A stretch of 32,000 nucleotides of DNA from the NCBI GenBank assembly GCA_964401865.1, contig CAYNZZ010000009.1:26357-58356 (forward strand), given 5' to 3'. The notes under the pieces were generated by a model. The model saw only the letters and a program-made list of their open reading frames with translations. It did no database searches and was not told where the DNA came from. Positions 4,969-31,786 of this stretch are shown piece by piece. Numbering within the stretch: position 1 is the stretch's first letter; every line of letters begins with the position of its first letter. This stretch comes from an uncultured Erysipelotrichaceae bacterium (GTDB lineage Bacteria > Bacillota_I > Bacilli_A > Erysipelotrichales > Erysipelotrichaceae). Made by a program: the position numbers and the translations under genes.

Positions 4969-6075
4969 TTATTTGATGGTGTAGTTCGTAAAATCATCAG
5001 TCATATAGACATTTAATCCGTTGATATTTTGAGTTTTGATATCTTCCGGATTATTTTCGCTCAATACCCAAAGAACTTCGATTTCAACATCATAATAATC
5101 TTCGACTCTTTGAATAAACTTCATTCCTTCTTCGATATTCATATTGAAAAGCGAAGTGCTTAAAGCATCCGCTAAACCGCTATTACTCACAATAACGCTT
5201 ACTGATTCATATAAATCTGAAGGATATAGTGTATCGGGATTGATGATATGGTGCATTTTTTTATTGCCCTCAGCAATGTAATAATTGAAGTAATTTCCTG
5301 ATGTGACAACCGATGCACTATTTCTAGTGAAAACATTGATAATACCATCATATGAATATTCTTGACTGCTTCTTGGATCTTGAATAGCTACGCCCCATGG
5401 TGTGCCGTCTGCTTTGTCATTTATTGTTCTGACATTGCCACCACCGACAATGCTGGCGTGTTTGATGCCGTTTTCTTCGAGCATTAAAGCTATCTTTTCG
5501 ACGGTATATCCTTTAGCAATACCACCGACATCAAGCGAAATATCTGGATCATCAATATAGACGGTACTATTTTCTTCATCAATTATGATATGTTCAAAAC
5601 CATGGTGTTTGCTGGCCTCGATTAAGTCATTTTCATCAGGAAGAATACCATAAACACCCGATTCATTCAGTGTTTTACCATCTTCTCTAACCTTATGCCA
5701 AACTTTTAATAAAGCACCCTGAGTAATATCAAATTTACCATTTGAGAGTTCATACATCTCTTTTGAAATCTTCAACATTTCAATGATTTCCTCATCAACT
5801 TCAATCGGTTTGATGCCGGCGTTATCATTAATGGTTTTGATATTATTGATATTTTCATAGTTATTATATATATCAAATAATTTATTATATCTTATGACTG
5901 ATTCTTTAATCATCTCTTCGTACTGGTTATTCTTATTTTCATTTTCAGTATAGATTATCCAGTTCCATACAGTGTTGAATCCGCAGTCATAACATATGTC
6001 GCTATACCTATTTAATGGTTTACATCCCGACAATAAAAAAGTAATTGTTATTAGTGATAAGATGATTTTTTTCAT
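4969..6075 (-). CDS. apbE: FAD:protein FMN transferase (ApbE family) lipoprotein
   Basis: Signal peptide with lipobox LLSGC. ApbE motifs DITQGALLKV, DVGGIAKGY and SVVTSGNY. ATG 6075 is preceded by AGGGAG; the track start at 6078 is an adjacent TTG. The gene is divergent from rnfC. Confidence 0.9.
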   Translation of the reverse strand: MKKIILSLITITFLLSGCKPLNRYSDICYDCGFNTVWNWIIYTENENKNNQYEEMIKESVIRYNKLFDIYNNYENINNIKTINDNAGIKPIEVDEEIIEMLKISKEMYELSNGKFDITQGALLKVWHKVREDGKTLNESGVYGILPDENDLIEASKHHGFEHIIIDEENSTVYIDDPDISLDVGGIAKGYTVEKIALMLEENGIKHASIVGGGNVRTINDKADGTPWGVAIQDPRSSQEYSYDGIINVFTRNSASVVTSGNYFNYYIAEGNKKMHHIINPDTLYPSDLYESVSVIVSNSGLADALSTSLFNMNIEEGMKFIQRVEDYYDVEIEVLWVLSENNPEDIKTQNINGLNVYMTDDFTNYTIK

Positions 6076-6104
6076 CAAAAGCTCCCTTGTAATTTAATGG
6101 AGTT

Positions 6105-6126
6105 ATTATAGCATATATGCTAAAAT
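6105..6126. promoter_or_regulatory. compact bidirectional promoter: two back-to-back extended -10 elements built on a palindrome
   Basis: ATTATAGCATATATGCTAAAAT is a 22-bp palindrome with one mismatch. The plus strand reads TGcTAAAAT (6118..6126) toward rnfC. The minus strand reads TGcTATAAT (complement of 6105..6113) toward apbE. Strong SDs follow on both sides. Confidence 0.5.
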
Positions 6127-6153
6127 ATAACTATTGAATAAGGAGGATAATAT

Positions 6154-7437
6154 ATGGCGTTCTTGATAGGACCAATGCAGAAGCATTTAGATGGTCATAA
6201 AGAACTAACCGCTCATAATGAAATAATTGATTTAACAGCCGGTGATAAAGTTTATATTCCATTAATGCATGGTGGTGCAGTGATAAAATGCCTTGTTAAT
6301 GTCGGAGACGAAGTTAAAATCGGTGATCGTATTGCGGTTAGAGACGATCATTTCTATGTGCCTTTTTTTGCGTCGGTATCAGGCAAAGTGATAGGTATCG
6401 AAAAGCGCATGTCTTCTAGTTTAAGACCGGTTGATCATGTGGTTATTGAAAACGATCATCTCGATACAAAAGCTGAACTTCCTACTCTAGGAAAAGATGC
6501 TTCAAGAGAAGAAATCATTGATTTTATGAAAGATAAGGGACTTGTAGGTTGTGGTGGTGCTGGTTTTCCTTCATACATCAAGTATCAGACTGACAAGTGT
6601 GAAACATTAATCATCAATGCAGTAGAATGTGAACCTTATATTACTGCTGATGCCAGAATGGTAGAAGATAATAAGGAAGACTTTAAATTAGGCGTTCTTT
6701 CGATGCTTAAAGCTTCTAATGCTAAGGTGTGCTACATTGGTATTAAAGAGAGTAAAAAAGAATTAATACCTCAACTTCAAGAATTATTTAAAAATGACGA
6801 TAATGTTGAGGTAAAAGCAGTAAAAGATGTTTATCCAATGGGTTGGGAAAGAACCTTGGTTTTCTCGATTTTAGGCAAGCGATATGAAAAACTTCCTATT
6901 GAAGTAGGAGCCATTGTTTCTAATGCTACGACAGCTATTATGTTGGCGAGGGCAATGAATACCGGCTTACCAATTTATGAAAAGTTAATTACTGTTTCTG
7001 GTGATGGTATTAAAGAACCACACAATGTTTTGTGCCGTGTAGGTACAAGTTTTAAAGATTTAATTAATGCTTGTGGTGGATTAAAAGATGATGCTGATAA
7101 GTTTGCGCTTATCGCTGGAGGGCCAATGATGGGGACTTCGGTTATCAAAGACGAAGTGTGTATTGGTGCTGCCAGTAATGCAGTTACGGTCTTAAAGTAT
7201 GTTGAAGTAAAAAGTATTGCTTGTTTAAGGTGTGGCCAATGTGTTGATCATTGTCCAAGTGGTCTAGAACCGGTCAATATCAACAAGGCATTAAAGGCTA
7301 AAGATCTTGATATGGTAAAGAAACTTCATCCAATGGATTGTATTGAATGTGGTATGTGTACATATGTTTGTCCTTCGAATATCGAAGTGACTGAAGGTGT
7401 ACGCCGTGCTAAGAAAGCTATGGCTTTAAATAGATAA
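6154..7437 (+). CDS. rnfC: Rnf electron transport complex subunit C (NADH/FMN-binding, 2x[4Fe-4S])
   Basis: 427 aa. Contains GCGGAGFPSYIKY (51K-type NADH/FMN site) and two ferredoxin motifs, CLRCGQCVDHCP and CIECGMCTYVCP. RBS AAGGAGG. Confidence 0.92.
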   Translation: MAFLIGPMQKHLDGHKELTAHNEIIDLTAGDKVYIPLMHGGAVIKCLVNVGDEVKIGDRIAVRDDHFYVPFFASVSGKVIGIEKRMSSSLRPVDHVVIENDHLDTKAELPTLGKDASREEIIDFMKDKGLVGCGGAGFPSYIKYQTDKCETLIINAVECEPYITADARMVEDNKEDFKLGVLSMLKASNAKVCYIGIKESKKELIPQLQELFKNDDNVEVKAVKDVYPMGWERTLVFSILGKRYEKLPIEVGAIVSNATTAIMLARAMNTGLPIYEKLITVSGDGIKEPHNVLCRVGTSFKDLINACGGLKDDADKFALIAGGPMMGTSVIKDEVCIGAASNAVTVLKYVEVKSIACLRCGQCVDHCPSGLEPVNINKALKAKDLDMVKKLHPMDCIECGMCTYVCPSNIEVTEGVRRAKKAMALNR

Positions 7438-7449
7438 GGTGGTGTAAGA

Positions 7450-9330
7450 ATGGAATTAAAATATAAAGCAGCGCCTCATGTTAGGCATAATTATTCAACT
7501 GCTAAGATAATGATGCATCTTACTATTGCTTTACTTATCGTTTATGCTTTTGCACTATATCGCAGTTTCACTTTAGGGCAGGCGTATTTAATTAGAGCTA
7601 TCGTACTGATGCTTACTTCTGTTGTAGTAGCGTGTTTGACCGAAACTATTTGGGCACTTTGCACACACAAAAATGTCATTGATTATTTAAAATCATCATT
7701 TCCTTGGGTTACAGCTATTATTTTAACCTTAATGGTTCCTGTTAATACTGAACCATATGCCTTAGGTGTTTCAACTTTCATCGCTATCTTCTTTGGCAAG
7801 TTGGTATTTGGCGGTTTTGGTCAAAATATTTTCAATCCGGCTGCTGTTGGTAGAGCGATTATTTTTTCGAGTTTTGCAGGCAGTATCTCAGCCGATCTAA
7901 TCACTAGCGCCACACCTGCCACTACTCTTGCGAGTGTTGGACAAATTGCTTCATCTGGTGATTTTTCGGTTTTCTTAAATGATTTTGGTGGGTTATTTAA
8001 TTTAGGCCTTGGTATGTATCAGGGGGCAATGGGTGAAACATGTTCAATTTTGATCATTGTTCTTGGCATTTATTTAACTATTGTAAATGTTATTGATTGG
8101 CGTATCCCGGTTACATACTTAGGTGTAATGTTCTTCGGTTCATTATTTGTCGGTATGGGGCATGGTCTTGGCTTTGATTATGCGCTATATTCAATTTTAA
8201 CTGGTGGTGCAATGTTCGGTGCTGTATTTATGCTTACTGATCCGGTCACTAATCCAACTACTAGAGCCGGTAAGATTGTTTTTGCAAGTATTGCCGCTGT
8301 CATTACAATCGTTATCAGATATTATGCTAATCTTCCAGAAGGCGTATTATTCTCTATTCTATTCGCAAATATGCTTACGCCAATTATTGATAAGTTTTTT
8401 GCGGGTAAACAAGTTGCCCGTATCAATAAAAACATCATCAGCACATTCGGAATGGTAATTTTATCCGTTGTCCTGATAGTTGTTATGGGGTTGGGTTTAG
8501 AATCCAAGACATATACGAGTATCTTGGTTCCTGAGTTTAACAGAGGAGCCAGTGTATCATTAAGTGATGATTATAGTATCTATAAACCAAAATTAATATC
8601 TCAAGATGGCGACACATATCAAGTGAGTGCCTTAGGCTATGGTTTATTAGGAACGCAATACGGTGGAGCAGGTGGTGAAAGTCACACAGGCGATACTTAT
8701 AAGAGAAATGAAATGACTATTGTGATTGATTCAAGTACCAATACAGTTGTATCGGTTGAGATTACTTCATTTGGCGATACGACTGGCATAGGTGATAAGG
8801 TAGATGACAAAGGATTCTATTATCAATTTATTGGTGCTGATCTTGATAGCGATGTCGATGTTGTGAGTGGCGCTACATATACATCTAAGTCAGTTAATGC
8901 AGCGGTTAATTTTGTGTTAAACGGCTGTCCTGAACCGGCAAAGATAAATGATGATTACAGTGCTTACAGCGCCACAATTACCGATGCCACGGTTAACGAC
9001 AATGGTGATGGAACTTATCATGTATCAGTAAGAGGCTATGGCTTGCTCGATGTTCAAAGCGGCGGTGCTGGTGGCGTGAGCCACACGGGCGATACTTATA
9101 CGAGAAATGAATTTGATATTACGGTGAAAGACGGCAAGATTGATTCTATCGTATTAACACATTTCGGCGATACAACAGGTATTGGCGATAAAGTTGATGA
9201 TGCATATTTAGAGAGTTTTAATGGAAAGGGTATAGATGATAGTGTTGATTTGATGAGCGGCGCTACCTATACTTCTGTGTCTGCCATAGCTGCTGCGCAA
9301 GCGGTCTTGAGCACAATCATAATTGACTAG
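7450..9330 (+). CDS. rnfD: Rnf subunit D fused to an extra TM helix and two tandem FMN-binding domains
   Basis: Residues 1-~325 are canonical RnfD/NqrB (GQNIFNPAAVGRA, native flavinylation-type site DLITSATP, MLTDPVT, ANMLTPIIDK). Residues 329-350 form an additional hydrophobic helix (IISTFGMVILSVVLIVVMGLGL). Residues ~372-490 and ~500-620 are two homologous FMN_bind-like domains, each ending in D(V/L)xSGATYTS. Confidence 0.9.
   Translation: MELKYKAAPHVRHNYSTAKIMMHLTIALLIVYAFALYRSFTLGQAYLIRAIVLMLTSVVVACLTETIWALCTHKNVIDYLKSSFPWVTAIILTLMVPVNTEPYALGVSTFIAIFFGKLVFGGFGQNIFNPAAVGRAIIFSSFAGSISADLITSATPATTLASVGQIASSGDFSVFLNDFGGLFNLGLGMYQGAMGETCSILIIVLGIYLTIVNVIDWRIPVTYLGVMFFGSLFVGMGHGLGFDYALYSILTGGAMFGAVFMLTDPVTNPTTRAGKIVFASIAAVITIVIRYYANLPEGVLFSILFANMLTPIIDKFFAGKQVARINKNIISTFGMVILSVVLIVVMGLGLESKTYTSILVPEFNRGASVSLSDDYSIYKPKLISQDGDTYQVSALGYGLLGTQYGGAGGESHTGDTYKRNEMTIVIDSSTNTVVSVEITSFGDTTGIGDKVDDKGFYYQFIGADLDSDVDVVSGATYTSKSVNAAVNFVLNGCPEPAKINDDYSAYSATITDATVNDNGDGTYHVSVRGYGLLDVQSGGAGGVSHTGDTYTRNEFDITVKDGKIDSIVLTHFGDTTGIGDKVDDAYLESFNGKGIDDSVDLMSGATYTSVSAIAAAQAVLSTIIID
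8563..9309 (+). repeat. tandem duplicated coding module (two FMN-binding domain copies) inside rnfD
   Basis: Copy 1 is about 8563..8919 and copy 2 about 8947..9309. Aligned strings include GYGLLGTQYGGAGGESHTGDTYKRNE / GYGLLDVQSGGAGGVSHTGDTYTRNE, FGDTTGIGDKVDD in both, and VSGATYTS / MSGATYTS. Similarity is also visible at the nucleotide level (ggcgatacttataagagaaatga vs ggcgatacttatacgagaaatga). Confidence 0.85.
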
Positions 9331-9339
9331 GAGGCATAT

Positions 9340-9840
9340 ATGAAAAAAACAATTACATTAGTATTATTCTTAGGAATTGTGGCCGCTGTTTCAGGTTTAT
9401 GTATCAGTTTGGTAAATGATGTCACTAGTCCGATAATTGCTGAAAATGATATCGCTTCTGAAAAGGCAAATTTAGAATTGATGTTTCCTAATGCTGAATT
9501 TACAGTTATCGATTACTCGGGTGACGATGATGCGGTACTGGGCATCTATGAAGTTAAAGATATTGGCTATGTAGTAAAGGTTGAGGGATATGGATATTCG
9601 TCGACACCAATTGTTGCCTTGATAGGCATGGATAAAGATCTTACCGTTCTTGATGTAATTATCTTATCTAATCAAGAAACAAATGGTTTCGGTAGTCGTT
9701 GCTTTGAAAGAGACTTTGTGGAAAAAGCCTACATTGGCAAGAAAAAAGATGAAGAAGTAGATATGCTTTCAGGTGCAACTTTAACATCGACAGCCATGAA
9801 GAAAATGATCAACTCTGCGCGTATGGCGCTAGGTGATTAG
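9340..9840 (+). CDS. rnfG: Rnf subunit G (membrane-anchored FMN-binding subunit)
   Basis: 166 aa. N-terminal TM anchor, an FMN_bind domain and the flavinylation motif DMLSGATLTS. RBS GGAGG. Confidence 0.9.
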   Translation: MKKTITLVLFLGIVAAVSGLCISLVNDVTSPIIAENDIASEKANLELMFPNAEFTVIDYSGDDDAVLGIYEVKDIGYVVKVEGYGYSSTPIVALIGMDKDLTVLDVIILSNQETNGFGSRCFERDFVEKAYIGKKKDEEVDMLSGATLTSTAMKKMINSARMALGD

Positions 9841-9848
9841 GAGGACTT

Positions 9849-10490
9849 ATGTGGAAAAATTTTAAAAATGGTTTCATTTTAGAAAATCCAGTATTCGGTC
9901 TTTATTTAGGTATGTGTAGTGCGTTAGCTATTTCTACAACATTAAATAATGCAATCGGTATGGGTATGTGTGTTACATTGGTATTGATTTGTTCAAATAT
10001 CATCGTATCAATCATTCGCAAAGTTACACCGGATGAAATTCGTATTCCGGTATATATTGTTGTAATAGCATCTTTAGTTACAATTGTAGAAATGTTAGTA
10101 CATGCGTTTATGCCTGAATTATATAAATCGCTTGGTGTATTCTTATCATTGATTGTAGTAAACTGTATTATTCTTGGACGTGCCGAAGCATTTGCGTCTA
10201 AAAATGGTGTGGTAGCAAGTGCCATTGATGGCTTAGGCATGGGTTTAGGATATACTTTCGCTTTATTGTTAATATCGGTTGTAAGAGAATTTTTAGCGAC
10301 GATGGCAATTACATTTGTAAATCCATTCAATGCCGAACAAGTTTTATTCTCGTTTAGTATTGAAGCTTTGGAACCATTCAAGATTTCTTTATTCTCTTCA
10401 TCTGTTGGTGCATTCTTTACATTTGCGTGCTTTGCGGCATTATTCTCGGTTATTCGTAAGAATATGAAAAAGAAAGAGGAGGCTAAATAA
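9849..10490 (+). CDS. rnfE: Rnf subunit E
   Basis: 213-aa polytopic protein of the RnfA/E-NqrD/E family: NPVFGLYLGMCSALA and LSLIVVNCIILGRAEAFA. Its position after rnfG is as in rnfCDGEAB operons. Confidence 0.9.
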   Translation: MWKNFKNGFILENPVFGLYLGMCSALAISTTLNNAIGMGMCVTLVLICSNIIVSIIRKVTPDEIRIPVYIVVIASLVTIVEMLVHAFMPELYKSLGVFLSLIVVNCIILGRAEAFASKNGVVASAIDGLGMGLGYTFALLLISVVREFLATMAITFVNPFNAEQVLFSFSIEALEPFKISLFSSSVGAFFTFACFAALFSVIRKNMKKKEEAK

Positions 10491-10492
10491 TT

Positions 10493-11068
10493 ATGGGTGA
10501 AATTTTAACTATGGCTTTGGCCGCTATACTTATCAATAATGTTGTGCTATCTAAATTCTTGGGTGTTTGTCCGTTCTTAGGTGTATCTAAAAATTCTAAG
10601 AATGCGATTGGCATGGGTCTTGCGGTAACATTTGTTATTCTGGGTGCTTCACTAATTACATATTTCTTGTATTATGGTGTTTTAGTAAAATTTGAGATTG
10701 AATATATGCAACTTATTACTTTCATTTTGGTAATCGCTGCTTTTGTTCAATTTGTTGAAATGTTTATTAAGAAATATAGTGCGCCATTATATAAGAGTTT
10801 AGGTATCTATTTACCACTTATCACTACTAACTGTGTCGTATTATTCGTGGCAAAAGACAATATTGCACAAGGCTATAATTTAGTTGAAACAATCGTTAAT
10901 TCAATTTCTGTACCTTTAGGTTTCATGCTAGTGCTATATTTATTCTCTAGCATTCGTGAAAGACTTGATAGTTCTGATGTTCCCGAGGCATTTAAAGGCA
11001 ATCCGGTTGCACTAGTTGTTGCAGGTCTTATGGCTTTAGCCTTTAGCGGTTTAGCTGGTATTGTTTAA
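10493..11068 (+). CDS. rnfA: Rnf subunit A
   Basis: 191 aa: NNVVLSKFLGVCPFLGVS and LGIYLPLITTNCVVL, of the RnfA/NqrE type. RBS GAGGAGG. Confidence 0.9.
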   Translation: MGEILTMALAAILINNVVLSKFLGVCPFLGVSKNSKNAIGMGLAVTFVILGASLITYFLYYGVLVKFEIEYMQLITFILVIAAFVQFVEMFIKKYSAPLYKSLGIYLPLITTNCVVLFVAKDNIAQGYNLVETIVNSISVPLGFMLVLYLFSSIRERLDSSDVPEAFKGNPVALVVAGLMALAFSGLAGIV

Positions 11069-11256
11069 TGTCGGCAATTATCTATTTTATTGTTTTGGCA
11101 GCTTTGTATGGAGTATTCTATTATTTTAATCATAAGACTCCAAAACCTGAAGGTTGCGAAAATTTAAAATCTAACTGTGATGGATGTAAGATAACTTCTT
11201 GTATGTCGCATCCTATTCACGATGAAGCTTATAAGGGAGGAAACAAAGATGATTAA
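11068..11256 (+). CDS. small Cys-rich single-pass membrane protein (resembles FeoB-associated Cys-rich membrane peptides)
   Basis: 62 aa. N-terminal TM helix (SAIIYFIVLAALYGVFYYF), then the motif CENLKSNCDGCKITSC (C-x6-C-x2-C-x4-C). Its ATG overlaps the rnfA stop (TAATG) and its 3' end overlaps the rnfB start by 8 nt. That coupling on both sides argues for a real gene. Confidence 0.6.
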   Translation: MSAIIYFIVLAALYGVFYYFNHKTPKPEGCENLKSNCDGCKITSCMSHPIHDEAYKGGNKDD

Positions 11257-11557
11257 TGCTATATTAGTAATGTTGGTTGTTGGTATGGTTTTGGGATTAT
11301 TATTGTCGCTTGCTTCAAAACTGTTCTATGTCGAGATAGATGAAAGACAAGAAAAAGTTACGTCTATGCTTCCAGGGTTCAACTGTGGAAGTTGTGGACA
11401 TCCTGGCTGTAGTGGATTGGCGAGTGCGTTAATAGAAAAAAGTACTGACACAGTGAATTGTAGGCCATGTAAGCCTGAACAAAGGCAAGCTATTGTTGAT
11501 TATCTCAATAGTACGCCAGGTCCAGATGGCGAAGTATTAAAAGTAAAATCAATATAA
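11249..11557 (+). CDS. rnfB: minimal Rnf subunit B: membrane anchor plus N-terminal Fe-S module only, no ferredoxin-type domains
   Basis: 102 aa from ATG 11249; GGGAGG at 11235..11240 gives an 8-nt spacing. TM helix MINAILVMLVVGMVLGLLLSLA, then LPGFNCGSCGHPGCSGLASAL...NCRPC, the RnfB N-terminal C-x2-C-x4-C-x17-C pattern. The ORF stops before any CxxCxxCxxxCP domain. The track start at 11222 has no SD. Confidence 0.8.
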   Translation: MINAILVMLVVGMVLGLLLSLASKLFYVEIDERQEKVTSMLPGFNCGSCGHPGCSGLASALIEKSTDTVNCRPCKPEQRQAIVDYLNSTPGPDGEVLKVKSI

Positions 11558-11561
11558 TAAA

Positions 11562-11589
11562 TAACGGTATCATAGCTATGATACCGTTA
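11562..11589. repeat. perfect 28-nt palindrome between rnfB and mrp
   Basis: TAACGGTATCATAG|CTATGATACCGTTA. No U-tract follows. TATAAT at 11593..11598 comes directly after it, followed by the AAGGAGG of mrp. Confidence 0.7.
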
Positions 11590-11615
11590 CGTTATAATGC
11601 AAAAGGAGGAATAAA

Positions 11616-12437
11616 ATGAGCGAAAATTGTAATCACGATTGCAGTAATTGTAATGAAAATTGTAATTCAAGACAAATCGAACCAAAAGTACCACTAGAAG
11701 ATACTAAAATAAATAAGATTGTTGGTGTTTTAAGTGGAAAAGGCGGCGTCGGCAAATCGATGGTGTCTTCGCTTTTAGCAGTAGAATTAGCTAAAAAGGG
11801 ATATAAGGTTGGTATCATGGACGCTGATATCACAGGTCCAAGTATTCCGAAGATGTTCGATATGCATGAACCTGCATATGGTGATGAAAAAGGTGTTTTC
11901 CCTAATTTGAGTAATAAATACGGTATTAAAATATTATCTATCAATATGATGCTAGAAAGCGAAGATACACCGGTGTTGTGGCGTGGTCCTATCATTGGCG
12001 GAATGGTTACTCAATTCTATACTGAAGCGCATTGGGGTGAATTAGATTATTTAGTAATTGATATGCCACCAGGAACCAGTGATGTTGCATTATCTGTTTT
12101 ACAAGAAATTCCAGTAGACGGTCTGGTAATGGTATCCAACCCATCTAAATTGGTGTCAATGATTGTTTCTAAGGCTATTGTTATGGCACAAAAAACTGAT
12201 ACTAAGATGATTGGCTTAGTTGAAAATATGGCATATGTAAAATGTCCGGATTGCGGAAAGATCATTAAGATTCATGGTGATAACGATACTAAAAACATTT
12301 GTCAAAAATATAATTTGGATGTTTTGGCTAGTTTGCCATTAGATACCGAGTTAGCTAATTTATCTGATGAAGGTAAAATTGAAGATTATAGTAGCAATTA
12401 TATTGATGAATTGGTTGCTTCTGTTATTACATTTTAA
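11616..12437 (+). CDS. mrp: Mrp/NBP35/ApbC-family ATP-binding Fe-S cluster carrier
   Basis: 273 aa. Deviant Walker A GKGGVGKS, the DMPPGTSD motif, a C-terminal CPDCG pair and an N-terminal Cys-rich tail CNHDCSNCNENC. RBS AAGGAGG. Confidence 0.9.
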   Translation: MSENCNHDCSNCNENCNSRQIEPKVPLEDTKINKIVGVLSGKGGVGKSMVSSLLAVELAKKGYKVGIMDADITGPSIPKMFDMHEPAYGDEKGVFPNLSNKYGIKILSINMMLESEDTPVLWRGPIIGGMVTQFYTEAHWGELDYLVIDMPPGTSDVALSVLQEIPVDGLVMVSNPSKLVSMIVSKAIVMAQKTDTKMIGLVENMAYVKCPDCGKIIKIHGDNDTKNICQKYNLDVLASLPLDTELANLSDEGKIEDYSSNYIDELVASVITF

Positions 12438-12455
12438 GTCTCGAAAGAGACTTTT
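12436..12455 (+). terminator. putative intrinsic terminator after mrp
   Basis: AAGTCTC-gaaa-GAGACTT followed by a short T-run. The stem is short (7 bp), so confidence is moderate. Confidence 0.5.
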
Positions 12456-12499
12456 AAAAATTTCAGATATATTTCACATGGTTTTGTTATGATTAAAGT

Positions 12500-13168
12500 A
12501 TGAATGAAAAAATATTGGTTGTTGATGATGAAGAAAAGATAAGAGAAATGATATCTAAGTATGGTTTACATGAAGGATATGATATCGAAATGGCTAAAGA
12601 TGGTGTTGATGCAGTCGAAAAATGTGAAAATAATGACTACGATTTAATTATTATGGATGTCATGATGCCAAAAATGGATGGATTTAAAGCTTATCAAAAA
12701 ATTAAAGAAAACAAGGATATTCCATGTATCTTTTTAACTGCGTTAAATGAAGAATACGACAGAATATATGGCTTTGATATTGGTGGTGAAGACTATGTAT
12801 CTAAACCTTTCTCTTTAAAGGAACTAATGCTTAGAATAAAAGTTATTTTGAAAAGGCATAATGAAAGCAATGACTTTTTGGAAGTTAATGGTTTAAAGGT
12901 TGATTTACAAGCTAGAATTGTAACAGTTGATGGTGAAAAGATTAATCTTTCTTTAAAGGAGTATGAATTGTTGGTATATCTTTTAAAAAATCAAGGTATC
13001 GCCTTGTCTAGGGAAAGTATTTTAGAAAAAGTATGGGGATATGATTATTTTAAAGATGATAGAACTTTGGATACTCATATGAAATTGCTTCGTAAGGCTA
13101 TTGGACCTTATGCTAAACACATCACGACGATTAGAGGGGTAGGTTATCGCTTTGAAAAAAACGCGTAG
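12500..13168 (+). CDS. OmpR/PhoB-family response regulator
   Basis: 222 aa. Receiver domain (VDDEE...DLIIMDVMMPKMDG...KP) plus a winged-helix output domain (LSLKEYELLVYLLKN...RTLDTHMKLLRKA...TIRGVGYRF). Confidence 0.9.
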   Translation: MNEKILVVDDEEKIREMISKYGLHEGYDIEMAKDGVDAVEKCENNDYDLIIMDVMMPKMDGFKAYQKIKENKDIPCIFLTALNEEYDRIYGFDIGGEDYVSKPFSLKELMLRIKVILKRHNESNDFLEVNGLKVDLQARIVTVDGEKINLSLKEYELLVYLLKNQGIALSRESILEKVWGYDYFKDDRTLDTHMKLLRKAIGPYAKHITTIRGVGYRFEKNA

Positions 13169-27475: not shown

Positions 27476-28279
27476 ATGAAATTAATAGATAATGCTTTAT
27501 CAAAAGATGATTTAATCAAATTATTTATCGAGGTAGGTGTAAAATCAGGAATGATACTTGAAGTGCATTCTTCTCTTTCGAAGTTTGGTTATGTTATAGG
27601 GGGAGCGCAGACTTTTAATGATGCTTTGATAGAAGTATTAGGTTACAACGGAACGATTATTATGCCACTTCAATCAGCATCGATGAATGAACCGAGTTTT
27701 TTTGAATTTCCGCCAATAGCGAGAGAACTATTTTCTAAGTATCGCGATAGTTTGCCGGCATATGACATGCGAAATACTGATAGCGAGATGATGGGCAAAG
27801 TAGTTTCTAATTTAAGAAGAAGGAGCAAATCTATCATATCGTGCCATCCAAATTGTTCGTTTGTTGCTTATGGTAAATATGCAAAAGTTTTATGTGAACA
27901 TCAAAAACTAGATTATGCTTTATCGGATACCTCACCTTTAGGAAGATTGTATGAATTGAAATCACATTGTCTTTTAGCAGGTGTTGATTATGATAATATG
28001 ACTTCGTTGCATTTAAGCGAATATCGTTCTTCAATAAGACCAATTATTTTACAAGGAACAAAGATAATGAAAAATGATAGAGCCGTTTGGGAGAAATATC
28101 TAGATTTAGATTTGAATAGTGATGATGGTTTTCTGGAAATTGGTAAAAACCTTGAAAATAAAAAACTTGTGAACATCATTGATATCCCAAAAGGTAAAAT
28201 GAAATTATTACGAGTTGATGTGGCTGTCGATGAGGGAATGCACTACTTTGATAAGATGTTAGAATATTACAAGAAATGA
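27476..28279 (+). CDS. aminoglycoside N(3)-acetyltransferase family protein (Antibiotic_NAT, PF02522-like; YokD-like)
   Basis: 267 aa. LEVHSSLSKFGYVIGGAQTFNDALIEVLGYNGTIIMP is the characteristic N-terminal block of AAC(3)-family enzymes. The gene starts 3 nt after the kinase stop. Confidence 0.8.
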   Translation: MKLIDNALSKDDLIKLFIEVGVKSGMILEVHSSLSKFGYVIGGAQTFNDALIEVLGYNGTIIMPLQSASMNEPSFFEFPPIARELFSKYRDSLPAYDMRNTDSEMMGKVVSNLRRRSKSIISCHPNCSFVAYGKYAKVLCEHQKLDYALSDTSPLGRLYELKSHCLLAGVDYDNMTSLHLSEYRSSIRPIILQGTKIMKNDRAVWEKYLDLDLNSDDGFLEIGKNLENKKLVNIIDIPKGKMKLLRVDVAVDEGMHYFDKMLEYYKK

Positions 28280-29726: not shown

Positions 29727-29733
29727 TGTAAAT

Positions 29734-29808
29734 GTAACAGGGGTGTCCGTCATGGGCTGAGAAATACCCTTATTACCTGATCTAGGTTATGCTAGCGTAG
29801 GGAGTTAT
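29734..29808 (+). promoter_or_regulatory. TPP (THI-box) riboswitch aptamer (Rfam RF00059 type)
   Basis: GTAAC...GGGGTGTCCGTCATGGGCTGAGAAATACCCTTATTACCTGATCTAGGTTATGCTAGCGTAGGGA...GTTAT. It carries the conserved CUGAGA, ACCUGAUCUGG-like and GCUAGCGUAGGGA cores with a closing P1 helix, and sits upstream of thiT. Confidence 0.9.
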
Positions 29809-29816
29809 CTATCCTT

Positions 29817-29841
29817 GCGCCTTCTATGGAGGTGTTTTTTT
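29817..29841 (+). terminator. riboswitch expression platform: hairpin that sequesters the thiT SD and is followed by a T7 run
   Basis: GCGCCTTC-tat-GGAGGTGT (8 bp including G-U pairs) followed by TTTTTTT. The GGAGG in the 3' arm (29828..29832) is the thiT RBS. Confidence 0.6.
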
Positions 29842-30408
29842 ATGTCAAAAGCAAACAAAACGATCAAAATTATGGTGTATATTGCATTATATGCCGCACT
29901 TGCTACTGGACTTGATATCATCAAAGAGATGTTGTCATTTCTAGATCTTCCTCAAGGTGGTTCAATTAATATTGCCTTAATTCCTATTGTTCTATCTTCT
30001 TTTCATTTAGGGCCAATATATGGCATGGCAACAGGAATCTTATGGATGCTAATATCTTTTGTAGTTACTCCACCATATATTGCATCAAGTATGGCGATAC
30101 TCGGTTTTATCTGTGATTATGTTATTCCATCGATTATTATTGGAGCTTCATCAATGTTTTTTATGAAAAAAAAGAATTACATTATGATGGAACTAGGAAT
30201 AGTTATAACGATGTTTATTAGAACGGTGTCAATTCTAATATCTGGTGCATACGCATGGCCGGGTGATGAAGCCGCTGGTTCGCTTGCTGCTTGGACTGGA
30301 TCACTAGGCTATAATCTCCCATATTGCATTGCGACAACGGTCTTATTACTTGTCATTGTTCCTATTTTATATAAAACGTTGAACAAACAAATTACTAAAA
30401 CAATATAG
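29842..30408 (+). CDS. thiT: thiamine ECF transporter S component ThiT
   Basis: 188 aa from ATG 29842 (MSKANKTIKIMVYIALYAALATGLD...), a six-TM S-component-like protein. It lies directly behind the TPP riboswitch. Confidence 0.85.
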   Translation: MSKANKTIKIMVYIALYAALATGLDIIKEMLSFLDLPQGGSINIALIPIVLSSFHLGPIYGMATGILWMLISFVVTPPYIASSMAILGFICDYVIPSIIIGASSMFFMKKKNYIMMELGIVITMFIRTVSILISGAYAWPGDEAAGSLAAWTGSLGYNLPYCIATTVLLLVIVPILYKTLNKQITKTI

Positions 30409-31057: not shown

Positions 31058-31071
31058 TTTACTAGAAGATC

Positions 31072-31175
31072 TGTTTCAGGGCAAGGTGCAATTCCTTACT
31101 GGCGGTATAGTCCGCGAGCGAAAGCTGAATGGGTTAAATTCCCATACCAACGGTAAAGTCCGGATGAAAGAAACA
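31072..31175 (+). promoter_or_regulatory. FMN riboswitch (RFN element, Rfam RF00050 type) aptamer
   Basis: TGTTTC-AGGGCAAGGTGCAATTCCTTACTGGCGGTATAGTCCGCGAGC...GGGTTAAATTCCCATACCAACGGTAAAGTCCGGATGAAA-GAAACA. It has the conserved RFN cores and a P1 helix TGTTTC/GAAACA. Confidence 0.92.
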
Positions 31176-31195
31176 TTTTATTTCTTTTTCAATTT

Positions 31196-31224
31196 AAGCC
31201 CTAAACTATTAGGGCTTTTTGTTT
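31196..31224 (+). terminator. FMN riboswitch terminator (expression platform)
   Basis: AAGCCCTAA-acta-TTAGGGCTT followed by TTTGTTT. It lies between the aptamer and the ribU RBS. Confidence 0.8.
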
Positions 31225-31249
31225 CAGACTTCTTAGAATAGAGGAAAAC

Positions 31250-31786
31250 ATGAATCAAAAAATTCAAAAAGTCGCCAGAATGGGAATATTAATCGCCATT
31301 TCAATCGTATTAGTGTATTTTGTCCATTTTCCAATTTTCCCCCAAGTCAGGTTTTTGGAATACGATCCTGCTGATGTTTCAATTTTGATTGTCGGGTTTG
31401 CATATGGCCCGATTAGTGGCATAATCGTTACTGTGATTGCGTCGATTATTCAAGGCTTGACCGTCAGTAGTCAAAGTGGAATATATGGAATAATCATGCA
31501 TATTATTGCCACTAGCTTTCTAGTTGGAATCTCAAGTTTTATCTATCGACGAAATAAAACGATGAAAGGAGCGATTATTAGTCTTGTGTTTGGGTGTTTA
31601 GCAATGCTTGGCGCAATGATAATCGCTAATTTGATTGTCACTCCTTATTTTATGCATATCACTGTACAAAGCTTAATACCGCTAATGCCATTTATCGCTT
31701 TATTCAATCTTATAAAATCAATCATTAATTCAATAATCACATTCTTTCTATATAAAAGAATTTCTTCTTTTCTACATCTGCGATAG
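31250..31786 (+). CDS. ribU: riboflavin ECF transporter S component RibU
   Basis: 178 aa. KVARMGILIAISIVLVYFVHFPIFP...LEYDPADVSILIVGFAYGP matches the RibU/FmnP pattern. The gene is preceded by the FMN riboswitch. RBS AGAGGAAAA. Confidence 0.88.
   Translation: MNQKIQKVARMGILIAISIVLVYFVHFPIFPQVRFLEYDPADVSILIVGFAYGPISGIIVTVIASIIQGLTVSSQSGIYGIIMHIIATSFLVGISSFIYRRNKTMKGAIISLVFGCLAMLGAMIIANLIVTPYFMHITVQSLIPLMPFIALFNLIKSIINSIITFFLYKRISSFLHLR

Follow-up and report, generated by a model that had tools for sequence, protein, structure and literature searches.

Within a 32,000-nucleotide stretch of DNA from an uncultured Erysipelotrichaceae bacterium (contig CAYNZZ010000009.1; the whole stretch is referred to here as the window), the rnfD gene of a complete Rnf operon encodes a genuine and conserved three-part protein, in which the RnfD core is followed by an extra helix and by two FMN_bind modules that are predicted to carry covalent flavin mononucleotide (FMN). 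The usual description of Rnf is of a closed loop that links ferredoxin and nicotinamide adenine dinucleotide (NAD+), and a conserved RnfD with its own outward-facing covalent flavins would give this loop a third terminal on the cell surface. We lean towards the interpretation that the modules form a tethered extracytosolic flavin relay, a side branch off (or into) the Rnf loop at the level of the RnfG and RnfD flavins. Below, we set out the evidence for the architecture of this protein and its variation among relatives, and then weigh this interpretation against its alternatives.

RnfD is extended by a helix and two FMN-binding domains

The window rnfD is a single open reading frame (ORF) of 626 amino acids (aa) that begins with ATG and has no internal stop or frame break in the ORF list. 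Direct reading of the junction DNA (8380..9360) likewise found an unbroken frame with no stop codon, bearing out a preliminary description of this DNA that had taken it for one continuous gene. The Pfam family NQR2_RnfD_RnfE (PF03116) covers residues 6-321 (E = 2.9e-74, 250.5 bits against a cut-off of 27.7), and phmmer matched the solved RnfD chain 7zc6_D at 1.3e-39. Since the solved RnfD chains (310-318 aa) align to residues 3-323 only, some 300 residues of the window protein are extra, and the core ends near residue 325, where it had been placed earlier. The covalent-FMN threonine, T155 (7912..7914, motif DLITSATP), is invariant in both homologue alignments. In an AlphaFold2 model built with 46 homologues as input (mean predicted local distance difference test score, pLDDT, 83.5), the core matches chains 9eri_D, 7zc6_D and 8ahx_D in Foldseek with E values of 6e-15 to 2e-12 and template modelling scores (TM-scores) on the target of 0.75-0.83. 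By profile, motif and fold the window protein is a member of the RnfD/NqrB family, despite falling below the curated cut-off of the NCBIfam rnfD subfamily TIGR01946 (187.5 bits in two stretches, cut-off 207.05); its clade is divergent from the TIGR01946 seed RnfDs. The identical 626-aa protein (P0178) is present on 2 other contigs in a public protein collection, and public annotation of the fusion proteins reads 'RnfABCDGE type electron transport complex subunit D'.

A Kyte-Doolittle scan places a hydrophobic stretch at residues 325-356, and AlphaFold2 predicts a helix at 325-347 with pLDDT values of 84-95. This is the one additional helix that the preliminary description had put at residues 329-350 (8434..8499); that position, like those it gave for T155, T476 and T606, proved exact. 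An equivalent of this 11th helix follows a Lys/Arg-rich linker in 87 of the 87 RnfDs of the clade, and because these include 7 that lack any FMN module, the helix is probably more than a signal anchor left behind by a gene fusion. RnfD in the C. tetanomorphum structure has its final ~10 residues in the cytoplasm, on RnfC (PMC9588780). As canonical RnfD ends in the cytoplasm, one further helix should shift the C-terminus, and with it the FMN modules, to the outside. Besides helix parity, two features point to this topology. One is charge bias, with 3 Lys/Arg and 0 Asp/Glu in the 13 residues preceding the helix and an acidic 276-residue extension beyond it (40 Asp/Glu versus 16 Lys/Arg; one cysteine). 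The other is the lipobox of the neighbouring flavin transferase ApbE, which should therefore sit on the same side as the FMN modules.

Beyond the helix, Pfam FMN_bind (PF04205) matches the window RnfD in two stretches (E = 2.1e-20, 73.5 bits against a cut-off of 22), and the two modules are 52% identical to each other over 122 residues (BLASTP 98 bits; BLOSUM62 local score 292), far beyond chance, in agreement with the original suggestion of two homologous domains with SGAT motifs. Both contain the motif Dxx[S/T]GA[S/T], as D470-VV-SGA-T476 (DVVSGAT) in module 1 and D600-LM-SGA-T606 (DLMSGAT) in module 2, with predicted flavinylation sites at T476 (8875..8877) and T606 (9265..9267). AlphaFold2 predicts two alpha/beta domains whose terminal helices (residues 476-490 and 606-625) start exactly at these two threonines. 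In homologues as distant as 37% identity, T476 is invariant or at least 90% conserved; among the two-module homologues, at least 90% keep T606. A Thr or Ser is found at the attachment position in nearly all of 97 modules borne by RnfD and 60 extra modules borne by RnfG, and in C. tetanomorphum RnfG the flavinylated Thr164 is similarly placed (PMC9588780). Each module is placed among the expected substrates of the neighbouring lipoprotein ApbE, from which it would receive covalent FMN at T476 or T606.

When residues 351-626 were modelled separately (pLDDT 88.3, predicted TM-score 0.73), Foldseek matched the model to NqrC, to RnfG and to crystal structures of single domains of CbFMN4 and SaFMN3, with TM-scores of 0.73-0.79 and root-mean-square deviations of 2.6-2.9 Å for 8p2b, while a profile search with the accessory module returned 8p2b at 2.1e-10 and RnfG at 3e-7. 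On both the sequence and the model, 8p2b, a domain of a multi-flavinylated protein, is the closest solved relative. Both modules also contain a Gly-rich insertion, at residues 397-419 (nt ~8638..8706, LLGTQYGGAGGESHTGDTYKRN) and 527-552 (nt ~9028..9105, LLDVQSGGAGGVSHTGDTYTRN), which is modelled with lower pLDDT (about 70-80), is missing from the RnfG-borne accessory modules and is shortened or different in more distant RnfD fusions.

Accessory modules are one family of variable number

The sequences nearest to the RnfD extension (36-39% identity) are the two additional modules at the C-terminus of three-domain RnfGs (~400 aa) in homologous operons. In a best-hit analysis that took in 242 modules from related loci, the RnfG core modules grouped together, and the best matches of the window RnfG were among them; the RnfD-borne and extra RnfG-borne modules formed another group, often within one locus. 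Given this grouping, the accessory modules are best described as one family, apart from the RnfG core domain, whose members have moved between the C-termini of RnfD and RnfG. Within the window's subclade, module 1 matches module 1 of the orthologues and module 2 their module 2, so the module duplication is older than the subclade; a recent tandem duplication, considered as the source of module 2, was rejected on the same pairing.

A HMMER search of 1.8 billion cluster representatives yielded 5298 RnfD-like matches, of which the best 150 (50%-identity clusters) were scanned with a module profile. Among these 150, one FMN module lies behind the RnfD core in 44 representatives, two in 20, three in 5 and four in 1. 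A scan with one genome per species returned 80 related loci. For 86 related loci, some of them near-duplicates, ORFs were called and scored with home-made profiles. A single RnfD module is combined with two RnfG modules at 29 loci, with one at 26, with three at 6 and with five at 3. Two RnfD modules and one RnfG module, as in the window, occur at 10 loci besides it, and 7 loci have no RnfD module and one to three RnfG modules; the combinations three and one, four and one, and two and two (RnfD and RnfG, respectively) were each found at 1 locus. Module number in these loci ranges from 0 to 4 on RnfD and from 1 to 5 on RnfG, and the core RnfG is always retained.

The nearest relatives are metagenome-assembled genomes of uncultured Erysipelotrichaceae with two-module RnfDs of 613-618 aa that share 57-71% identity with the query, and the same continuous two-module architecture, 57-75% identical to the query, is present in about 10 other species genomes. 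Hosts of the related loci are almost all Erysipelotrichaceae (Anaerorhabdus furcosa, Holdemania massiliensis, Traorella massiliensis, Solobacterium, Thomasclavelia, Erysipelothrix and [Eubacterium] hominis), together with a few Clostridiaceae (Proteiniclasticum, Youngiibacter); cultured members include Anaerorhabdus furcosa ATCC 25662, Holdemania massiliensis and Proteiniclasticum ruminis DSM 24773. A divergent apbE lies upstream in most of the loci, and every RnfB detected in the clade is 88-149 aa long and has no CxxCxxCxxxC motif. As far as sequence can tell, the RnfD-FMN arrangement is the family norm in Erysipelotrichaceae and one state of a variable, family-wide architecture. It is not the singular oddity for which it was first taken, and being family-wide it calls for less surprise than it was initially accorded.

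Eight Clostridiaceae loci (L041, L042, L048-L051, L055 and L082; Proteiniclasticum, Youngiibacter and others) have operons that consist of rnfC, rnfD with one FMN module, rnfG with two modules (one detected in L051), rnfE and rnfA. All four iron-sulfur cysteines of RnfA and RnfE are replaced there by Thr, Ser or Gly, and no rnfB adjoins the operon. These loci look like an Rnf derivative whose ferredoxin branch has apparently been lost and, because the RnfA/RnfE cysteines are gone and rnfB is not adjacent, the path from RnfC through RnfD to the flavin modules would be the only redox route remaining. The more valuable leads lie at the level of the family, namely this lineage with its apparently dead ferredoxin branch, the universal 11th helix and a conserved small Cys-rich ORF described below. 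Together with the 0-4 modules on RnfD and 1-5 on RnfG, the lineage makes up a natural series in which the construction of flavin wires could be dissected.

Some loci depart from these patterns in other ways. In Traorella massiliensis (L052, 9354..10463), a 369-aa RnfE ORF with a fused FMN_bind-type module stands beside a two-module RnfD, making RnfE a further attachment point for accessory flavin domains in this clade. The RnfDs of L024, L045, L053, L058, L062, L065 and L080 are 363-386 aa long and keep the 11th helix with no FMN module; at L024, tblastn still matched module sequence beyond the RnfD stop, which may reflect a frameshift or a split gene.

A proposed side branch off the Rnf loop and its alternatives

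The described Rnf path leads from ferredoxin through RnfB and the RnfA/RnfE iron-sulfur centre to the mobile RnfG flavin outside, and from there through the RnfD flavin, riboflavin and RnfC to NAD+ (PMC12174285). Tethered to RnfD by a linker of ~15-25 residues, the two additional FMNs would sit outside, beside the mobile RnfG flavin and the RnfD flavin. Electrons would enter either from NADH, by way of RnfC and RnfD, or from ferredoxin, by way of RnfB, RnfA/RnfE and RnfG, and the tethered FMNs would hand them singly to extracytosolic acceptors or reductases, or work the other way round; beside this flavin side branch, the complex would keep its ion-pumping core. Potential partners are suggested by work on the family: Erysipelotrichaceae have large arsenals of flavin reductases with signal peptides, and common gut species among them are reported to use secreted flavin reductases in the respiration of many dietary and host metabolites (bioRxiv 10.1101/2022.12.26.521950). 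The fusion is a testable candidate for the missing link from cytoplasmic NADH or ferredoxin to these secreted enzymes.

We favour such a side branch on several grounds. The copy number of the accessory modules drifts across loci and the modules are distinct from RnfG core modules, behaviour more in keeping with a modular wire than with an invariable catalytic component; the eight Clostridiaceae loci keep their modules where the RnfC-RnfD-FMN route seems to be the only one left; and there are both the precedent of multi-flavinylated RnfGs (PMC8238504) and the reported sets of secreted flavin reductases in the family. Two observations weigh against it. An acceptor or extracytosolic reductase gene was found neither in the 32-kb window nor in the four related neighbourhoods inspected. 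In addition, nothing of a normal ferredoxin:NAD+ Rnf is missing from the window complex, and its short RnfB is compatible with this function (T. maritima, PMC7414866), so the extra domains could be an embellishment of the normal loop.

Such an embellishment would have the modules act as additional or alternative RnfG-like shuttles from the RnfA/RnfE iron-sulfur centre to the RnfD flavin, with no outside outlet, for example raising throughput or tuning redox potential. The presence in the window of all six canonical subunits and all cofactor ligands, the lack of an acceptor gene nearby, the RnfG/NqrC fold of the modules and the relative with a module fused to RnfE would all suit this role. We nevertheless consider it unlikely, since the accessory family is distinct from the core module of the always-retained RnfG, a drift from 0 to 4 modules on RnfD and up to 5 on RnfG is hard to square with a stoichiometric role, and the Clostridiaceae variants keep modules despite loss of the RnfA/RnfE cluster ligands and rnfB. 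Alternatively, electrons could flow inward, with the tethered flavins collecting them from external donors (flavin shuttles, partner cells or extracytosolic dehydrogenases) and feeding NAD+ or, driven by the ion gradient, ferredoxin. Rnf is reversible (PMC12174285), nothing in the sequence fixes a direction, and the window also encodes a riboflavin energy-coupling factor (ECF) S-component under FMN-riboswitch control; however, no donor-side enzyme is encoded nearby and the characterised Gram-positive ApbE-flavinylated extracytosolic systems export electrons (PMC8238504), which makes an inlet less probable again than an in-loop shuttle.

Functions other than electron transfer, such as extracytosolic capture or storage of flavin, or a structural part in stabilising the complex within the Gram-positive envelope, seem to us very improbable. 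Apparent riboflavin import by the organism (FMN riboswitch and ECF riboflavin S component, 31068..31786) might suit a storage role, but the attachment threonine and its Dxx[S/T]GA[S/T] context are strongly conserved, and every characterised FMN_bind domain of the ApbE-substrate type is an electron carrier (PMC8238504; PMC10339131). Finally, a helix followed by FMN_bind domains resembles a signal-anchored protein of the RnfG/PplA type, and a few related loci have RnfD ORFs that end after the extra helix, as would be seen if an assembly or sequencing artefact, or a recent pseudo-fusion, had joined rnfD to a separate membrane-anchored di-FMN gene. This explanation is effectively refuted by the identical protein on the 2 other contigs, the recurrence of the architecture in about 10 other species genomes and in 20 representatives of the best 150 clusters, and the uninterrupted frame of the window DNA.

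Combining the 11-helix RnfD, the tethered flavin modules on RnfD and RnfG, the short RnfB and the small Cys-rich subunit leads to a broader proposal than the side branch itself, which we put forward only tentatively. The Erysipelotrichaceae-type Rnf could be a quinone-independent respiratory electron exporter, in which a covalent flavin chain would run from NADH or ferredoxin to extracytosolic flavin reductases while the core still pumps, and the Clostridiaceae derivative could be a stripped-down, one-way NADH-to-outside version of it.

Comparison with known flavin-based systems

Extra flavin domains as an Rnf outlet have already been published for RnfG, and the RnfD fusion extends this idea: Méheust et al. 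2021 (eLife) proposed multi-flavinylated RnfGs as a second path to extracytosolic acceptors (PMC8238504). Like the RNF clusters of that study, the window has a complete Rnf operon and, predicted to lie on the outer face, further FMN_bind domains of the ApbE type. Unlike in the multi-flavinylated RnfGs, however, the window RnfG is single-domain and the extra domains are borne by RnfD, from which they would reach the outside via the 11th helix; related loci do carry RnfGs of 2-5 domains. In the part of the Méheust 2021 text searched for fusions of PF03116 with PF04205, PF03116 is mentioned only for an NAD-binding fusion. The literature on flavinylation and Rnf structure, covered incompletely, yields multi-flavinylated RnfGs, a cytochrome-fused RnfG and the NAD-binding RnfD fusion; no RnfD combining an 11th helix with outward-facing FMN_bind domains was found in it, which at this coverage is absence of evidence only.

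The window RnfD shares its core fold, the SAT-P FMN threonine and its place in the rnfCDGEAB operon with canonical RnfD and NqrB (7ZC6_D, 9ERI_D, 8AHX_D; NqrB 7XK3_B). The canonical proteins are 310-366 aa long and end in the cytoplasm on RnfC, whereas the window RnfD continues for 300 residues with a helix and two domains predicted to lie outside. The NQR/RNF-like two-subunit systems also pair an NqrB/RnfD-type membrane domain with an extracytosolic FMN_bind domain, to which they export electrons one way (Méheust 2021; Huang 2024, PMC11334425), and they are functionally nearest to the degenerate Clostridiaceae relatives. Their RnfD has a fused cytosolic NAD-binding domain (PF00175) and no flavinylation threonine, while in the window RnfD Pfam finds no PF00175 match, T155 is present, and rnfC, rnfE, rnfA and rnfB are kept.

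Tandem FMN_bind domains with covalent FMN, predicted in the window, are also a feature of CbFMN4 and SaFMN3 (Tong et al. 2023, PMC10339131; PDB 8P2B, 8P2A), but these are stand-alone proteins, secreted or anchored, that lack a transporter-like membrane core. Judged by its description, Listeria PplA is similar in having two FMN_bind domains at the outer membrane surface and ApbE-like flavinylation (PMC8238504). PplA is a lipoprotein that receives its electrons from Ndh2, quinone and EetA/B, whereas the window RnfD is tethered by its own helix and its electron source would be Rnf; the ndh2, eetA/B and dmk families are not among the annotated window ORFs. An anchor like that of PplA had been proposed earlier for the RnfD extension, which has no lipobox and is anchored by a transmembrane helix, so this part of the preliminary description was not upheld. 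The 'FMN-bind2' of Huang et al. 2024 was considered as an identity for the modules and is unlikely; going by description, NTW96865.1 is given no InterPro family in the table of that study, and the window modules match PF04205 strongly.

The window RnfB resembles that of Thermotoga maritima Rnf (Kuhns et al. 2020, PMC7414866) in consisting of an anchor helix and a single [4Fe-4S] FdI domain; the T. maritima RnfB is 10.6 kDa and this short form is compatible with ferredoxin oxidation (PMC7414866). The short RnfB was also considered as proof of lost ferredoxin coupling, and this was rejected for the window on the grounds that the T. maritima short form oxidises ferredoxin and that the RnfA/RnfE cysteines are intact.

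The Rnf operon and its neighbours

All six subunit genes, rnfC, rnfD, rnfG, rnfE, rnfA and rnfB, lie in one cluster (6154..11557), with apbE beside it on the opposite strand (Table 1). The ApbE sequence predicts an extracytosolic lipoprotein. As originally proposed, the fusion adds to RnfG rather than replacing it, because a separate rnfG follows with its own anchor helix, FMN_bind domain and SGAT motif (predicted flavinylation site T147, 9778..9780); its own ribosome-binding site, AGGAGG, overlaps the rnfD stop codon, and its best NCBIfam match, TIGR01947, is below that model's cut-off. A cysteine census found all four RnfA/RnfE cysteines of the membrane iron-sulfur centre kept in the window.

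Table 1. Coordinates of the rnfD fusion, its parts and the adjoining genes in the window.
Feature	Position	Strand	Basis or description
apbE, flavin transferase	4969..6078	-	Divergent; Pfam ApbE 3.2e-66; N-terminus MKKIILSLITITFLLSGC, lipobox LSGC
rnfC, NADH/FMN and 2x[4Fe-4S] subunit	6154..7437	+	Pfam RnfC_N, Complex1_51K, SLBB and Fer4 families
rnfD fusion gene, whole	7450..9330	+	626 aa
RnfD/NqrB core, residues 1-325	7450..8424	+	PF03116; alignment to 7zc6_D and 9eri_D; Foldseek
Extra 11th transmembrane helix, residues ~325-350	8422..8499	+	Hydropathy, AlphaFold2, clade conservation, charge bias
Accessory FMN_bind module 1, residues ~365-492	8542..8925	+	Pfam FMN_bind 422-490, AlphaFold2, homologue conservation
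Accessory FMN_bind module 2, residues ~497-626	8938..9327	+	Second FMN_bind stretch, 52% identity to module 1, AlphaFold2
rnfG, 166 aa, anchor helix and one FMN_bind	9340..9840	+	Pfam FMN_bind 3.9e-14
rnfE	9849..10490	+	Pfam Rnf-Nqr 1.4e-60; [2Fe-2S] ligand cysteines C23 and C106 present
rnfA	10493..11068	+	Pfam Rnf-Nqr 3.3e-55; conserved cysteines C26 and C114 present
Small ORF, 62 aa, N-terminal transmembrane helix then NHKTPKPEGCENLKSNCDGCKITSC	11068..11256	+	Between rnfA and rnfB; 4-Cys motif GCExLxxxCxGCxIxSC
Short rnfB, 111 aa, transmembrane helix and single FeS (FdI) domain	11222..11557	+	Pfam FeS PF04060 only
Mrp/NUBPL-type Fe-S carrier ATPase	11616..12437	+	Cys-rich N-terminus CNHDCSNCNENC; Pfam ParA/NUBPL 6.3e-85

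The small Cys-rich ORF recurs with the same motif and at the same position in about 58 of the 86 related loci. It may encode a seventh subunit, one that binds metal and goes with the short RnfB; its Pfam FeoB_associated match is sub-threshold only (18.3 bits against a cut-off of 27). The window RnfB matches TIGR01944 at profile positions 3-92 of 190, and ferredoxin-type dicluster domains and the CxxCxxCxxxC motif were not found in it by Pfam, NCBIfam or a motif check. As the first ATG of rnfB overlaps the small Cys-rich ORF, RnfB translation probably begins at the second Met (Met10, at 11249). The gene is followed closely by a perfect 13-bp hairpin (11561..11590), and in a promoter and terminator scan of 5900..12700 the counts equalled those of shuffled controls. 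The Mrp/NUBPL ATPase gene directly after rnfB adjoins the Rnf operon only in the window and at L012, and its membership in the Rnf system is uncertain.

The remaining genes of the window are housekeeping genes. An FMN riboswitch (Rfam RF00050, 106 bits; 31068..31179, plus strand) precedes the ECF-type riboflavin S component (31250..31786, plus strand); import of riboflavin by the organism is probable and bears on the flavin supply of the four predicted covalent FMN sites outside the cell. A thiamine pyrophosphate (TPP) riboswitch (RF00059, 71.7 bits; 29729..29820, plus strand) lies upstream of a YuaJ/ThiT-type thiamine transporter gene (29815..30408, plus strand), and the ORF at 27476..28279 (plus strand) has a strong match to Pfam Antibiotic_NAT (aminoglycoside 3-N-acetyltransferase, 1.9e-56).

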